A stretch of 5,268 nucleotides of DNA. Source: a virus. Lineage: Duplodnaviria > Heunggongvirae > Uroviricota > Caudoviricetes. The stretch is taken from IMG/VR virus record IMGVR_UViG_2541047928_000011, one strand, 5' to 3'. Shown here piece by piece: positions 1,440 to 5,268 of the stretch. Position 1 is the stretch's first letter, and every line of letters starts with the position of its first letter. A model generated the notes under the pieces. That model was not told the origin of the DNA and did no database searches. It saw nothing but the letters and a program-made list of their open reading frames with translations. A program made the translations under genes and the position numbers.

Positions 1440-3506
1440 ATGGCAGCAGTAAAAATCTCAGGTGTGCTGAAAGATGGTGCGGGAAAACCAATACAGAACT
1501 GCACTATTCAGCTGAAGGCAAAGCGTAACAGCACCACGGTACTGGTGAACACGGTGGCCTCTGAAAATCCGGATGAAGCCGGGCGTTACAGCATGGATGT
1601 TGAGCATGGCCAGTACAGCGTCACCCTGCTGGTTGAAGGTTTTCCGCCTTCACATGCCGGGACCATTACCGTCTATGAAGGTTCCAGACCAGGTACGCTG
1701 AATGATTTTCTTGGTGCCATGACGGAGGATGATGCCCGTCCGGAGGCACTGCGCCGTTTTGAACTGATGGTGGAAGAAGCAGCACGCAACGCTGAAGCCG
1801 CCTCTCAGAGCGCAGCGGCGGCAAAGAAATCCGAAACTGCAGCGGCATCATCGAAGAACGCGGCGAAAACCTCAGAAACGAATGCAGCTAATAGTGCACA
1901 GGCGGCAGCGACCTCACAGACTGCATCAGCAAACTCCGCGACAGCAGCCAAAAAATCAGAAACCAGCGCGAAAAACAGCGAGACAGCCACAAAGGCCAGC
2001 GAAAAAAACGCAAAATCCAGCCAGACGGCAGCGAAAACCAGTGAGACGAATGCCAAAGACAGTGAAGCCAACGCAAAGGTGAGCGAAACAGCGGCGGCGA
2101 ACTCGGCGAAAGCATCGGCAGCAAGCCAGACGGCAGCAAAAGCAAGTGAAGATGCTGCCAGAGAATACGCAAACCAGACAGCAGAGCCGTACAGATATGT
2201 TTTACAGCCGCTGCCGGATGTGTGGATACCCTTTAATGATTCGCTGGATATGATTACGGGCTATTCTCCGGGTTATAAAAAAGTGAAGATTGGCGATAAT
2301 GTGGTTCAGGTTGCCAGTGATAAACAGGTTAATTTCAGTCGCGCATCAACGGCAACATATATCAACAAATCTGGCGAACTGAAAACGGCGGAAATTAATG
2401 AGCCGCGATTTGAGTGTGATGGCCTGCTTATTGAGGGACAAAGAACGAACTTCTTCCAGAACAGTACAGACCCTTCGAAGTGGAATAAGTCAACTTCACT
2501 GGACGTTACAGAAACAGGCACAGATAGTTTCGGGTTTAATTATGGTCGGTTTGTCGTACAGGATTCGATTGTTGGTACAAGTAAAGCGCATACCATTATC
2601 GGACTGTATTCGAGTACCGGAGGGGTTGATACTTCAGGGGACGAAAAGCATGTAACTATATCCTGTCGGGTAAAAAGTGAAGTTGATAATATCGCCGTTC
2701 GTATTTTATTTGAACATTATGATGGGGAGGTAAGGACATCAATAGGAGCAGCAAACCTGAACCTTACCACCCGCATAATTAGCAAGACAGGTCAGACAAG
2801 CCGTGTTACAGCAAGGTCTGTTAAGGATGATGCAACTGGCTGGATATTTTTTGAGGCTACATTAAAAGCAGATACAACAGAAAATACGGTTGGTGGTTTT
2901 GTCCAGTATTCTCCGGATACAGGGCAGATGGTTACATCAGGGGATTATCTCGATGTAACCACTCCACAGATTGAGGCTGGTACAGGCGCATCATCTTTTA
3001 TTGTTACGGGGACGGCACCGGCAACGCGGGCAAGCGATATGGTGACAGTCCCAATCAAGAATAACCTTTATAATCTTCCTTTTACGGTTCTTTGTGAGGT
3101 ACATAAGAACTGGTATAAAACGCCAAATGTAGCGCCGCGTGTTTTTGATACCGGCGGTCATCAAACCGGAGCGGGGATCGTAATGGGGTTTGGTTCATCA
3201 GGTGGGTACGACGGTTTTCCGTATTGCGATATAGGTGGTTCAGACCGACGAATAAATGAAAATGCCGGGCTGGAAAAAATGCTTATTGGTATGCGGGTAA
3301 AGTCCGAACGGTCCACATGTGTAGTCAGTAACGGTAAGTTAAGCAGCGAAACTAAAACCAAATGGGAATATATCCGGAGTACAGCAACCATTCGCATTGG
3401 TGGACAAACTACAGCAGGATTACGCCATTTATTTGGGCATGTGAGGAATTTTCGTCTCTGGCATAAAGAGCTAACAGATGCGCAGCTTGGGGAGGTTGTG
3501 GAGTGA
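1440..3506 (+). CDS. stf: Side tail fibre protein Stf, mosaic: lambda-like N-terminal domain, heptad-repeat shaft, divergent distal receptor-binding half
   Basis: ORF ends at TGA 3504-3506. The N-terminus (AVKISGVLKDGAGKPIQNCTIQLKAKRNSTT…GRYSMDVEHGQYSV…FPPSHAGTITVYE) matches recalled lambda Stf (orf-401). Start is set at ATG 1440 because GGAG (1431-1434) lies 5 nt upstream; the ORF-track start ATG 1434 has no RBS. The distal half (about 2200-3506) is visibly AT-richer and does not resemble lambda Stf as I recall it. Confidence 0.9.
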   Translation: MAAVKISGVLKDGAGKPIQNCTIQLKAKRNSTTVLVNTVASENPDEAGRYSMDVEHGQYSVTLLVEGFPPSHAGTITVYEGSRPGTLNDFLGAMTEDDARPEALRRFELMVEEAARNAEAASQSAAAAKKSETAAASSKNAAKTSETNAANSAQAAATSQTASANSATAAKKSETSAKNSETATKASEKNAKSSQTAAKTSETNAKDSEANAKVSETAAANSAKASAASQTAAKASEDAAREYANQTAEPYRYVLQPLPDVWIPFNDSLDMITGYSPGYKKVKIGDNVVQVASDKQVNFSRASTATYINKSGELKTAEINEPRFECDGLLIEGQRTNFFQNSTDPSKWNKSTSLDVTETGTDSFGFNYGRFVVQDSIVGTSKAHTIIGLYSSTGGVDTSGDEKHVTISCRVKSEVDNIAVRILFEHYDGEVRTSIGAANLNLTTRIISKTGQTSRVTARSVKDDATGWIFFEATLKADTTENTVGGFVQYSPDTGQMVTSGDYLDVTTPQIEAGTGASSFIVTGTAPATRASDMVTVPIKNNLYNLPFTVLCEVHKNWYKTPNVAPRVFDTGGHQTGAGIVMGFGSSGGYDGFPYCDIGGSDRRINENAGLEKMLIGMRVKSERSTCVVSNGKLSSETKTKWEYIRSTATIRIGGQTTAGLRHLFGHVRNFRLWHKELTDAQLGEVVE
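1794..2162 (+). repeat. Degenerate 21-bp tandem repeat array encoding about 17 heptads (x-A-A-K-x-S-E/Q) in the Stf shaft
   Basis: Protein residues about 121-243 parse cleanly into 7-residue units (AAAKKSE TAAASSK NAAKTSE TNAANSA … TAAKASE). The underlying DNA is A/G/C-rich low complexity, which also produces stop-free spurious ORFs on both strands. Confidence 0.7.
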
Positions 3507-3781
3507 GAGATTTCACGTTGCGTTTCAGTGATAAAGCAGATTTCAGGGCATTTCTCAGGAAACTTAACTGGGAAGAGGACGAAGAGCTGCAGAATGCCGT
3601 TCTGGTTGATGAGATTGGTTTTACGTTCAGGGAGACAGATGTTTCTGATGACGGAGAACCAGAATACACGCGAAACGAAGGGTACTTTGTTAATATCCGT
3701 CTTCTTGACGATGGATTTGAGGATTCCGTGTTCCGTGAGTGGGTGGTTACACCAGAGCGCCCGCTCAGGGAGTGGTTTTAA
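3503..3781 (+). CDS. Hypothetical small acidic protein (92 aa), translationally coupled to stf; possible fibre-specific chaperone or accessory factor
   Basis: GTG start at 3503 overlaps the stf stop (GTGA, 3503-3506). RBS GGGGAGG (3489-3495) lies inside the stf 3' end. Stop TAA 3779-3781. The protein is D/E-rich, has no hydrophobic segment, and has no family I recognise. Confidence 0.55.
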   Translation: MRDFTLRFSDKADFRAFLRKLNWEEDEELQNAVLVDEIGFTFRETDVSDDGEPEYTRNEGYFVNIRLLDDGFEDSVFREWVVTPERPLREWF

Positions 3782-3790
3782 GGATAGCAG

Positions 3791-4084
3791 ATGGATATCA
3801 CGTCGATACTTCATGCGCTTTGTGCCGTGGCGGTGCAGGTACTGGCTGGTCTTTTTACCGGAAACTGGGCTTACGGGGCGATAGCCGGTTGTACGTTCTT
3901 CATTGCGCGTGAACACACCCAGGCAGAATATCGCTGGATTAAGCGTTTTGGTGATGGTCACCGACATAAGATGCCGTGGTGGGGCGGTTTTGATCCACGT
4001 GCATGGGATGTGGCAAGCCTGATGGATTTTGCTGTGCCGGTGGTGGCGTGTCTGCTGGTCTGGCTGTTGGTTAATCGTGGGTGA
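3791..4084 (+). CDS. Hypothetical small membrane protein (97 aa, 2-3 predicted TM segments)
   Basis: RBS AAGGA (3780-3784) 6 nt before ATG 3791. A long N-terminal hydrophobic stretch (ITSILHALCAVAVQVLAGLFTGNWAYGAIAGCTFFIA) and a C-terminal hydrophobic helix (SLMDFAVPVVACLLVWLLV) flank a basic Trp-rich loop (RWIKRFGDGHRHKMPWWGGFDPRAW). Stop TGA 4082-4084. Confidence 0.55.
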   Translation: MDITSILHALCAVAVQVLAGLFTGNWAYGAIAGCTFFIAREHTQAEYRWIKRFGDGHRHKMPWWGGFDPRAWDVASLMDFAVPVVACLLVWLLVNRG

Positions 4085-4093
4085 AAAAGGTGA

Positions 4094-4222
4094 GCAGTAT
4101 ATGCAACGAAGGAGGAAACATCATTGCTGGCGGCATGGAAGGCATGCAGGGTGTTGCTGAACCGTGTTGATACATCAACTGCACCTGATATTGAGTGGCC
4201 TACGAACCCTGTCAGGGAGTAA
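4094..4222 (+). pseudogene. tfa: 3' remnant of a lambda-type tail fibre assembly gene (tfa), last ~40 codons only, no start codon
   Basis: In-frame translation gives …[39 protein letters not shown], which matches the recalled lambda Tfa C-terminus (…[34 protein letters not shown]…). In-frame stops at 4082 and 4091 precede it and the N-terminal ~150 codons of a full tfa are absent. Confidence 0.7.
4124..4200 (+). repeat. Direct repeat copy A (tfa 3'-end sequence), partner at 5173-5249
   Basis: Ungapped alignment at offset 1049 bp: 77 positions with 10 mismatches counted by eye, and a 38-bp perfectly identical core (4163-4200 = 5212-5249, CGTGTTGATACATCAACTGCACCTGATATTGAGTGGCC). Confidence 0.85.
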
Positions 4223-4276: not shown

Positions 4277-4933
4277 CTATTTTTTCCCTGAAGCGGAAAA
4301 CATTACTACAGTACCTTGAATCTTGGTTTTAACATTCTCGAAATGCTCTGAGAGTATATGTGTTAAGCCTTCTTCGGAATCTTTTGTGTTTGAAAAGATG
4401 CCTTTCTGATTGTAAATGCGCATCAGTTTTTGACCGAAGCTATTGTGCACAACGCCGTCACCAAGAATTGTGGCTCCGTATAGAGTTCCATCGTCAGTTA
4501 AGGCCTGCGCCGCATTGCGTATTACACAGCTTTTTGTAGATATATTTCCAGGCAGGCAGTGAAGAAGGTAAAACATGGAAATGGAATCAAATTGACCATG
4601 TAACGCCGCGGGATAAGGATCAAAAACATCATGGCTAATTTTATGTTTAATTTTTGATTCCCCAGCCCTTGTCGATGCCGCGTTCAGGCTAGCTTCGTTC
4701 AAATCCATTAAAGATATCAGACTACTCTCAGGTACGTGAGTAAGGTAAAACCCAGTTCCAACGCCAATATCCAGATGGTTGTTACCTAAATGTTCCAGAA
4801 AGTGTGGAAGAAGGTGTTCCTTTGTAGGACATCCCCATGCAAGCCGATTTGATACTCCCAAAACCCACCAGTCATAAAGCTTTAGGGTAAGTGGTGTGTA
4901 AATTTTAGCCCCATCATCTGTGTTTTTTTTCAT
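4277..4933 (-). CDS. Class I (Rossmann-fold) SAM-dependent methyltransferase-like protein, small-molecule/RNA/protein type rather than DNA MTase
   Basis: Recognisable motifs: motif I LDIGVGTG, a post-I acidic residue (…ISLMDLNE), motif II GQFDSISMFYLLHCLP, motif III LTDDGTLYG. No DPPY/NPPY catalytic motif in the right context and no target-recognition domain. The region is markedly AT-rich compared with J/lom. Start is set at ATG 4933 (GGTGA 5 nt upstream); the ORF-track start GTG 4942 has no RBS. Stop TAG 4277-4279. Confidence 0.8.
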   Translation of the reverse strand: MKKNTDDGAKIYTPLTLKLYDWWVLGVSNRLAWGCPTKEHLLPHFLEHLGNNHLDIGVGTGFYLTHVPESSLISLMDLNEASLNAASTRAGESKIKHKISHDVFDPYPAALHGQFDSISMFYLLHCLPGNISTKSCVIRNAAQALTDDGTLYGATILGDGVVHNSFGQKLMRIYNQKGIFSNTKDSEEGLTHILSEHFENVKTKIQGTVVMFSASGKK

Positions 4934-4945
4934 TAGTTTCACCGT

Positions 4946-4974
4946 ATTATAGTTTTATTTGTGAATTAAATCAA
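4946..4974 (-). promoter_or_regulatory. Candidate sigma70 promoter for the methyltransferase-like gene
   Basis: On the minus strand: -35 TTGATT (plus 4974-4969), a 17-nt spacer, and a perfect -10 TATAAT (plus 4951-4946). The -10 ends only about 13 nt upstream of ATG 4933, implying a very short or absent leader. Confidence 0.5.
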
Positions 4975-5001: not shown

Positions 5002-5268
5002 ATGCTGCCGCAGCATAGCGATATTGAAATAGCCTGGTATGCTTCGATACAGCAGGAGCCGAATGGCTGGAAGACCGTCACCACACAGTTCTACATCCAG
5101 GAATTCAGTGAGTATATTGCGCCACTGCAGGATGCTGTAGATCTGGAAATCGCAACGGAGGAAGAAAGATCGTTGCTGGAGGCATGGAATAAATATCGGG
5201 TATTGTTGAATCGTGTTGATACATCAACTGCACCTGATATTGAGTGGCCGACTTCACCTGCAGAGTAA
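5002..5268 (+). CDS. Small Tfa-like protein (88 aa) carrying only the conserved C-terminal Tfa domain (tail fibre assembly family)
   Basis: RBS AAGGGG (4992-4997) before ATG 5002; stop TAA 5266-5268 at the window end. The C-terminal ~50 aa ([47 protein letters not shown]) match the recalled lambda Tfa C-terminus; the N-terminal ~36 aa are unrelated and far shorter than a full Tfa N-domain. Confidence 0.7.
5173..5249 (+). repeat. Direct repeat copy B (tfa 3'-end sequence), partner at 4124-4200
   Basis: See copy A: same orientation, 1049 bp apart, 38-bp identical core 5212-5249. Confidence 0.85.

Follow-up and report, generated by a model that had tools for sequence, protein, structure and literature searches.

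The stretch of viral DNA analysed here (the window; 5,268 nucleotides (nt), IMG/VR virus record IMGVR_UViG_2541047928_000011) comes from a lambdoid phage or prophage, where it forms the right end of the late operon. The records nearest to it are those of the phages ev243 and PhiR49_2 and of E. coli prophages, among them the one in CFT073 (98% identity). Overlapping the stop codon of stf, the side tail fibre gene, is an open reading frame (ORF) for an acidic protein of 92 amino acids (aa), referred to here as ORF92, and as the small ORF when its homologues are included. ORF92 is a real, conserved gene under purifying selection, and it travels in a mobile cassette with the C-terminal module of the fibre, StfC. 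On balance, its product probably serves this fibre tip as a dedicated assembly chaperone or accessory; its family has no relationship with Tfa, gp38 or Peptidase_S74. The fibre region contains the following features:

1440–3506 (1434 in the ORF list), plus strand: stf, side tail fibre gene, identified by Pfam phage_tail_N, phrog_1419 and the RefSeq annotation of the CFT073 homologue.
2196–3503, plus strand: mobile C-terminal module StfC, Stf aa 255–690, identified by homology to 201 phage records.
2196–2420: conserved junction segment J of StfC, Stf 255–329, PLPDVWIPFNDSL...EPRFE..GLLIEGQRTN.
2421–2990: hypervariable lectin-like jelly roll of StfC, Stf ~330–519.
2991–3503: second conserved region and C-terminal tail of StfC, ...RHLFGHVRNFRLWHKELTD.
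3491–3495, plus strand: Shine-Dalgarno sequence GGAGG, within the last stf codons, 7 nt 5' of the GTG start of ORF92.
3503–3506, plus strand: GTGA, the 4-nt start/stop overlap of ORF92 and stf, read from the sequence.
3503–3781, plus strand: ORF92, 92-aa acidic protein, member of phrog_1361.

The stf gene ends ...GAG TGA, with the TGA at 3504–3506 and the GTG start of ORF92 at 3503–3505. The preliminary description of this locus had reported such an overlap, together with a ribosome-binding site embedded in the 3' end of stf and a highly acidic, soluble product, and each of these is borne out: the GTGA and GGAGG sequences are present, and the 11.2 kDa protein has an isoelectric point (pI) of 4.28, a grand average of hydropathy of -0.74, and 24 acidic (D+E) versus 12 basic (K+R) residues. 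Nothing resembling a promoter or a terminator separates stf from ORF92. Among the 138 loci analysed, which derive from IMG/VR contigs, GenBank phages and CFT073, the start/stop overlap with the long upstream fibre ORF is kept in 136, as a 1-nt TAATG or TGATG (n = 83), a 4-nt GTGA (n = 49) or a 4-nt ATGA (n = 4), and the small ORF is always in the -1 frame. The possibility that the small protein is fused to Stf through a programmed -1 frameshift was considered and rejected, since the ORF92 frame is open for only 12 codons upstream (to a TAA at 3464–3466), a slippery site is absent, and both the Shine-Dalgarno sequence and the M[KR]D N-terminus are conserved. The start of stf itself is ambiguous between the GTG at 1434 (690 aa, as in the ORF list) and the ATG at 1440; RefSeq homologues of 687–688 aa, beginning MAVKISG..., start at the ATG equivalent to 1440.

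Several observations establish the small ORF as a gene. First, ORF92 aligns end to end with phrog_1361 (E 1.3e-40, 138 bits; residues 1–92 against profile positions 1–92 of 92), with a distant match to phrog_18574 (E 1.3e-4); neither family has an assigned function, and the public labels are "hypothetical protein" and, once, "tail fiber protein". Second, tblastn identifies relatives in 196 phage records, and an exhaustive HMMER search over 1.8 billion cluster representatives (E <= 0.001) recovers 56 representatives having in common the motifs M[KR]D.xL[KR]F, D.IG, GY[FH]VN[ILV]R and P.R.W, with genuine relatives 85–103 aa in length. The invariant or near-invariant positions are M1, D3, L6, F8, D36, I38, G39, G60, V63, N64, R66, P87, R89 and W91. 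Third, the preliminary description had proposed that an absence of coding-type conservation would speak against the gene, and substitution is instead synonymous-biased: the ratio of nonsynonymous to synonymous polymorphism (pN/pS) is 0.27–0.52 in the small-ORF frame versus 1.0–2.2 in the other two frames. In the well-sampled 100-aa subfamily, represented by 68 distinct sequences, it is 0.27, as opposed to 1.29 and 1.45 in the alternative frames, and phage-21-type copies give 0.27–0.42. Four giant HMMER matches (P0040, P0042, P0051 and P0068) contain PKD-type or other repeats; these matches are driven by composition and are not relatives. The diverse family alignment contains no conserved stretch of 7–10 columns, a contig scan using the window's own protein as query gave no match, and the ORFs that overlap ORF92 (3528–3884 on the plus strand, 3161–3967 and 3409–3669 on the minus strand) have no family match.

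Structure prediction of the protein alone, a check proposed at the outset, gives a confident AlphaFold2 model (pLDDT 90.4, pTM 0.76) from a 22-sequence alignment. The predicted structure is a small alpha/beta fold with the topology b-a-a-b-b-b-b-a, in which the conserved C-terminal P-x-R-x-W tail is the sole low-confidence part. Comparison of the model with solved structures finds no convincing relative, and Foldseek against viral models returns uncharacterised phage proteins only; as modelled, the small protein has a new fold. No Pfam, NCBIfam or PADLOC match is found, and no confident match to an unrelated known family, which the preliminary description had named as evidence against a fibre role, came to light. 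A PDB profile search returned Tetrahymena telomerase p19 at E 0.01, a weak match judged to be due to chance.

The papers that could be searched offer no role for this protein. The literature covered, which comprises the BASEL reports of 2021 and 2025, DT57C genetics and cryo-electron microscopy (cryo-EM), and the Eligo lambda-vector preprint, states nothing on the small protein, and the Webervirus receptor-binding protein, RBPseg and Dhillonvirus proteome literature is equally silent. PMC11990801 and PMC12143355 do not discuss the small ORF. No virion proteomics or map interpretation for the small protein was found in the literature, and the proteome of the EE09 lysate could not be linked to any small-ORF homologue. 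The small protein would represent a fibre assembly accessory from a family unrelated to the known ones.

The fibre partner is composed of segments with very different histories. The Stf N-terminus is the lambdoid virion-attachment domain (Pfam phage_tail_N, E 4.7e-67, aa 5–134), and it is followed by an Ala/Ser/Glu-rich coiled-coil stalk. After the coiled coil, the StfC junction segment carries the motifs PDVWIP..., FSRASTATY... and EPRFE..GLLIEGQRTN, and the module ends in a tail with the motif ...RHLFGH.RN.R.WH..LTD. StfC, counted as the C-terminal 440 aa of Stf at a coverage of at least 80%, is present at 35–100% identity across the 201 phage records, which include many lineages with unrelated fibre N-termini; a second protein-homologue search with StfC listed near-identical E. 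coli proteins only (>= 98% identity). Its concanavalin-type lectin domain matches NCBIfam GTA_spike_fiber and PDB 6TB9, and Foldseek places this domain near legume lectins, MAM domains and the tail fibres of Pa193 and E217. The AlphaFold2 monomer model of StfC is confident for aa 345–516 only, which is the lectin domain.

Related fibres have been modelled or imaged in other phages. In IrisVonRoten, the Gp22 trimer model includes a protruding galectin-like domain, according to PMC11990801, and a 7–9 Å map of the EmilHeitz fibre (EMD-51868) is described in PMC12143355 as having a head, D69, that is lectin-like. The BASEL D69 head and the RcGTA head spike fibre Rcc01080 (PDB 6TB9) are the closest described relatives of StfC, and not of the small ORF. 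Synechococcus and Rhodobacter phage records that share the lectin domain only are not among the listed small-ORF hosts.

The small ORF is obligately linked and translationally coupled to StfC, and the two move as a unit between unrelated virions. Co-occurrence with the fibre tip, another check that had been suggested, is close to 1:1, with 196 phage records containing the small ORF and 201 the full StfC module. In all 138 loci, the ORF upstream of the small-ORF homologue is related to Stf. The cassette is found in lambdoids including phage 21, Drexlerviridae (T1-like), Demerecviridae (T5-like), Dhillonvirus, Seuratvirus/Nonagvirus (Queuovirinae) and Vequintavirinae (rV5-like); the fibre N-termini are virion-specific (phage_tail_N, T5-type LtfA, rV5-type long fibre and others), and StfC and the small ORF are what these loci have in common. 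A further large set consists of IMG/VR viral contigs of ~40–55 kb whose nearest reference bacterial relatives are in Leclercia adecarboxylata, where the copies are presumably prophages. Aeromonas T5-like and P2-like phages encode 103- and 101-aa ORFs that match the family profile in hhalign with probabilities of 97% and 99%, respectively, and their fibres share the junction segment alone with the Stf of the window. Altogether, at least eight lineages have the cassette, with virulent as well as temperate phages among them; rV5-like therapy candidates, phage 21 and BASEL reference phages all carry the small ORF. Of 5426 complete E. coli genomes, 1909 give megablast matches to a 701-nt stretch comprising the stf 3' end, ORF92 and the next gene, and 365 of these hold at least 80% of it. 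Matches to GenBank records named as "Campylobacter" or "Listeria phage" (e.g. MG065653, MG065666 and OR847733) are identical or nearly identical to E. coli rV5- or T5-like phages, with 100% identity to JeffSchatz genes, and are probably mislabelled or contaminant.

This distribution bears on the idea that the small ORF is a moron unrelated to the fibre, with an anti-defence or superinfection exclusion function, that is simply expressed from the late operon. The preliminary description had raised such a role, and a small, acidic, unannotated protein in a moron-rich lambdoid region (lom at 776–1375, a methyltransferase gene at 4277–4942) fits it. However, across all of these lineages, in virulent phages as in temperate ones, the small ORF is strictly tied to one and the same fibre module, with whose stop codon it is in register. 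The small ORF also has no PADLOC match. The true passenger of the lambdoid backbone is the following gene, ORF97, which is unmoved when the fibre cassette changes. For a mobile member of a fibre cassette that is always in register with the fibre gene, an anti-defence or exclusion function finds no support, and we regard it as very improbable.

Comparison of allelic loci reveals what the cassette replaces. In PhiR29_1, which has the same J-lom-stf and methyltransferase flanks as the window, stf encodes a conventional tip and is followed by a full tfa gene overlapping the stf stop codon, and a tfa 3' remnant in the window marks the replacement of an ancestral Stf-tip/Tfa pair. ORF92 therefore does lie in the position of tfa, as first described. 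A parallel exchange is evident in rV5-like phages. Up to ~aa 1049, MaxBurger and JeffSchatz have fibres of 88% identity; beyond this point the MaxBurger fibre ends in Peptidase_S74 (E 8.5e-14) with no small ORF, and JeffSchatz and EmilHeitz encode StfC and a 110-aa small-ORF homologue in place of the S74 end. Both alleles precede the same conserved 196-aa gene. StfC plus the small ORF thus positionally replaces Tfa in lambdoids and the S74 domain in rV5-like phages.

The small protein resembles known fibre accessories in context and differs from Tfa, gp38, gp36 and S74 in both sequence and fold. Like Tfa, Mu gpU and P2 gpG (PF02413, Caudo_TAP), it is encoded directly 3' of the fibre gene with an overlapping stop codon, and like Tfa it is small and soluble, occupies the exact tfa position and is expected to act on the fibre C-terminus. 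Unlike Tfa, it has no PF02413 or PF16778 match (E up to 0.1) and shows no Tfa-like fold; the tfa fragment at 5002–5265 serves as a positive control in the same Pfam search (PF02413, E 3.9e-25). Nor does it have a Pfam match above noise to the T4 gp38/gp36 families, or any sequence similarity to the gp35/gp36 hinge proteins or gp57A, in agreement with the original statement that it is not of Tfa or gp38 type. The T4 protein gp57A is a small acidic general fibre chaperone, and the small ORF product is likewise small and acidic. Peptidase_S74, as in T5 pb1, K1F endosialidase, DT57C LtfA/B and the MaxBurger LTF, is exchangeable by position with the lectin head and small ORF (PMC12143355). In contrast to the S74 chaperone, which is a C-terminal domain released by autocleavage, the small protein is made as a polypeptide of its own, and it has no protease motif; PF13884 (S74) has no match in Stf or ORF92 and is present in the allelic MaxBurger fibre.

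These exchanges point to an assembly function at the fibre tip. In this tip, a trimeric stalk leads into the conserved junction, which is followed by a hypervariable receptor-binding domain of lectin-like (concanavalin/LamG) type and then by a C-terminal region that is again conserved. The small protein, translated by coupling in step with the fibre chain, would use its small alpha/beta domain and its conserved terminal P-x-R-x-W motif to bind the conserved non-receptor parts of the tip, namely the junction and the fibre's C-terminal region and tail. It would promote folding or trimerisation of the junction and C-terminal region, a task that falls in other fibres to a downstream Tfa or to a C-terminal Peptidase_S74 intramolecular chaperone. 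Physical binding and chaperone activity, and either release from or retention on the fibre, are what we infer from these arrangements.

Several additional findings are consistent with an assembly role. The small ORF is intact, with all invariant residues kept, in loci that have no distal fibre, namely those of the window type, phage 21/Perceval/ev203 and Vequintavirinae, with pN/pS values of 0.27–0.52 there, and an Aeromonas P2-like phage also keeps it with no following fibre gene. Across 36 tip variants, the small ORF is 75–93% conserved versus less than 88%, and often ~20–30%, for the receptor-binding domain, a pattern that suits a protein pairing with the conserved scaffold better than one that is itself an adhesin. 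Small-ORF divergence follows that of the fibre C-terminal tail (rho 0.69, Mantel p 0.0035) and of the junction more than that of the intervening second domain, in a weak test of 12 lineages in which the tail result is confounded by linkage. In AlphaFold2, the lectin domain is predicted to fold as a monomer and the junction and C-terminal regions are not, which lends weak support to a need for assistance in these regions. Binding motifs often show low pLDDT, as does the conserved C-terminal tail of the small protein.

Other observations weigh against an assembly role, or against the strength of the evidence for it. Lectin-like domains usually need no chaperone, and that of StfC is confidently folded alone in AlphaFold2. 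The StfC alignment contains 7 sequences only, so that the low-confidence regions may simply reflect its shallowness. Unlike Tfa, the small protein shows no co-variation with the variable part of its fibre, which binds the receptor. In the window's own clade, pN/pS is 0.52, a weak signal from 20 variable sites only, and frameshifted small-ORF copies are present in databases. Finally, most non-lambdoid relatives have a distal fibre gene 9–12 nt downstream, and the N-terminal anchor type of its product co-varies with the small-ORF subtype.

This last arrangement suggests a different function, in which the small protein is a structural adaptor or hinge for a distal fibre, and is present in the window as a leftover or tip cap after the distal gene was lost. 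As with the T4 gp35/gp36 hinge, a small protein is encoded between proximal and distal fibre genes in many relatives, though not in this prophage, where a 97-aa membrane protein is encoded next. T5-like, Drexlerviridae, Dhillonvirus, Seuratvirus/Nonagvirus (Queuovirinae) and Leclercia prophage loci have the small ORF after a proximal fibre gene and the distal gene 9–12 nt further on, and some lambdoids share this order (HannyBb, PhiR11_1 and the loci L136/L137). The distal fibres are a plug-in receptor-binding-protein system. They are hypervariable proteins of 145–709 aa, save for a conserved N-terminal anchor of 10–25 residues, of which there are two types: ..T(V/N)IPxDI(T/K)xLK.. accompanies small ORFs of 85–93 aa in nine of nine loci, and MAxR(I/K)Dxx(L).. 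accompanies 100-aa small ORFs in 74 loci plus eight variants. Anchored distal fibres of this kind are encoded after the small ORF at the loci L049, L050, L052, L054, L055, L136, L137 and L140, and at L053 and L056–L135. In IrisVonRoten, a T-shaped distal fibre, Gp24, has been modelled on the proximal Gp22, as described by Humolli et al. 2025 (PMC11990801), and Gp23, encoded between them, is a small-ORF homologue labelled "tail fiber protein".

A purely adaptor function is difficult to reconcile with other loci. The small ORF is intact and constrained with no distal fibre in 50 window-type lambdoid loci and in phage 21, Perceval and ev203, and the same is true of all Vequintavirinae alleles and of the Aeromonas P2-like phage. 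Its start is coupled to the proximal and not to the distal fibre gene. The branched LtfA/LtfB fibres of DT57C, products of the adjacent gp108/gp107 and both carrying S74, manage with no small protein (PMC10713586, PMC4728585). Co-variation with the anchor type may reflect shared ancestry. Given this persistence in the absence of a distal fibre, the coupling to the proximal gene and the S74 fibres that lack a small protein, an adaptor role appears unlikely, a chaperone or accessory role is on balance the probable one, and a cap is less likely than either.

As a retained cap or regulator, the small protein would transiently mask or tune the lectin head, so that fewer progeny re-adsorb to debris or to the cell undergoing lysis. 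The evidence from linkage is equal for a cap and for a chaperone, and the protein is strongly acidic (pI 4.3); moreover, a "chaperone cap" concept exists for Alteromonas phage fibres (Gonzalez-Serrano et al. 2023, as cited in PMC11990801). However, the present data do not distinguish a cap from a transient chaperone, and there is no co-variation with the receptor-binding domain that it would supposedly mask. We therefore consider a cap rather improbable. A combined role is also conceivable, if doubtful: a virion-retained subunit of new fold may nucleate trimerisation of the tip and then act either as a docking hub for interchangeable distal fibres, which it would recognise by their conserved N-terminal anchors, or as an acidic cap whose removal gates receptor binding.

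The new class of fibre chaperone, first suggested from the coupling of ORF92 to stf, is the best supported reading of this locus, since the small ORF is co-conserved with the fibre tip, its substitutions are of coding type, and it has no confident match to an unrelated family. Its context, the positional replacement of Tfa and S74, supports this part of the preliminary description; the interaction with the fibre is conjectural, and an adaptor role retains a lesser probability.

The remainder of the window contains the following features:

22–708: C-terminus of J.
776–1375: lom.
1402–1423: strong intrinsic terminator, directly 5' of stf.
3791–4084, plus strand: ORF97, 97-aa predicted membrane protein, phrog_1443.
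4103–4222 (approximate), plus strand: tfa 3' remnant, a RefSeq pseudogene in CFT073.
4277–4942, minus strand: class I S-adenosylmethionine-dependent methyltransferase (Pfam Methyltransf_12/23; phrog_2132, function unknown).
5002–5268: second tfa fragment (PF02413 at 5002–5265, E 3.9e-25).

Expression of stf requires read-through of the terminator that directly precedes it, i.e. antitermination. Downstream of the cassette, ORF97 begins 9 nt 3' of ORF92 and is present at 81–100% identity in all 55 lambdoid loci, whichever fibre or small-ORF allele they have. It is absent from all non-lambdoid loci, and it is located 3' of the distal fibre gene where one exists. ORF97 is thus part of the lambdoid backbone, at the end of the late operon and outside of the fibre cassette. 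Its constancy across fibre alleles removes the idea of an ORF92-ORF97 pair, and moves the candidacy for a lambdoid passenger gene from ORF92 to ORF97. The annotation of phage 21 gives its counterpart two transmembrane domains, phrog_1443 has no known function, and ORF97 has no match to PADLOC models; exclusion, receptor masking or another moron role are candidate functions. In Perceval, Lambda_ev203 and phage 21 (L138, L139 and L141), the fibre-ORF92-ORF97 block is directly followed by sitABCD on the minus strand, an iron/manganese ATP-binding cassette transporter operon carried there as phage cargo.

A 101-nt direct repeat of 85% identity (4103–4203 and 5152–5252) corresponds to two tfa 3' ends, and these flank the minus-strand methyltransferase gene. 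This suggests that a tfa end was duplicated and that the methyltransferase gene entered it by insertion or recombination; PhiR29_1 contains a full tfa, the same methyltransferase gene and a second tfa fragment. The gene is a moron between tfa fragments, with promoter-like sites at 4974–4946 and 5001–4974, a "YbcY-like" label in one phage record and a faint PADLOC match to mad2 only (E 0.004).

The lectin-headed side and lateral fibres of this cassette are common, and they determine binding to O-antigen and lipopolysaccharide. Fibre swapping and the construction of chimeric lambda or T5-type particles generally fail if the cognate assembly factor is left behind, and an obligate, unannotated 92-aa partner therefore has direct practical consequences. 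The cassette also bears on host-range engineering. A retained hub or cap subunit, if that is the role, would be the key connector of a plug-and-play fibre system in at least eight phage lineages. An assembly role, if true, would give a function to the large PHROG families 1361 and 18574 and would represent a fourth solution to fibre folding, a separate small protein unrelated to Tfa/gpU, gp38/gp57A or S74.

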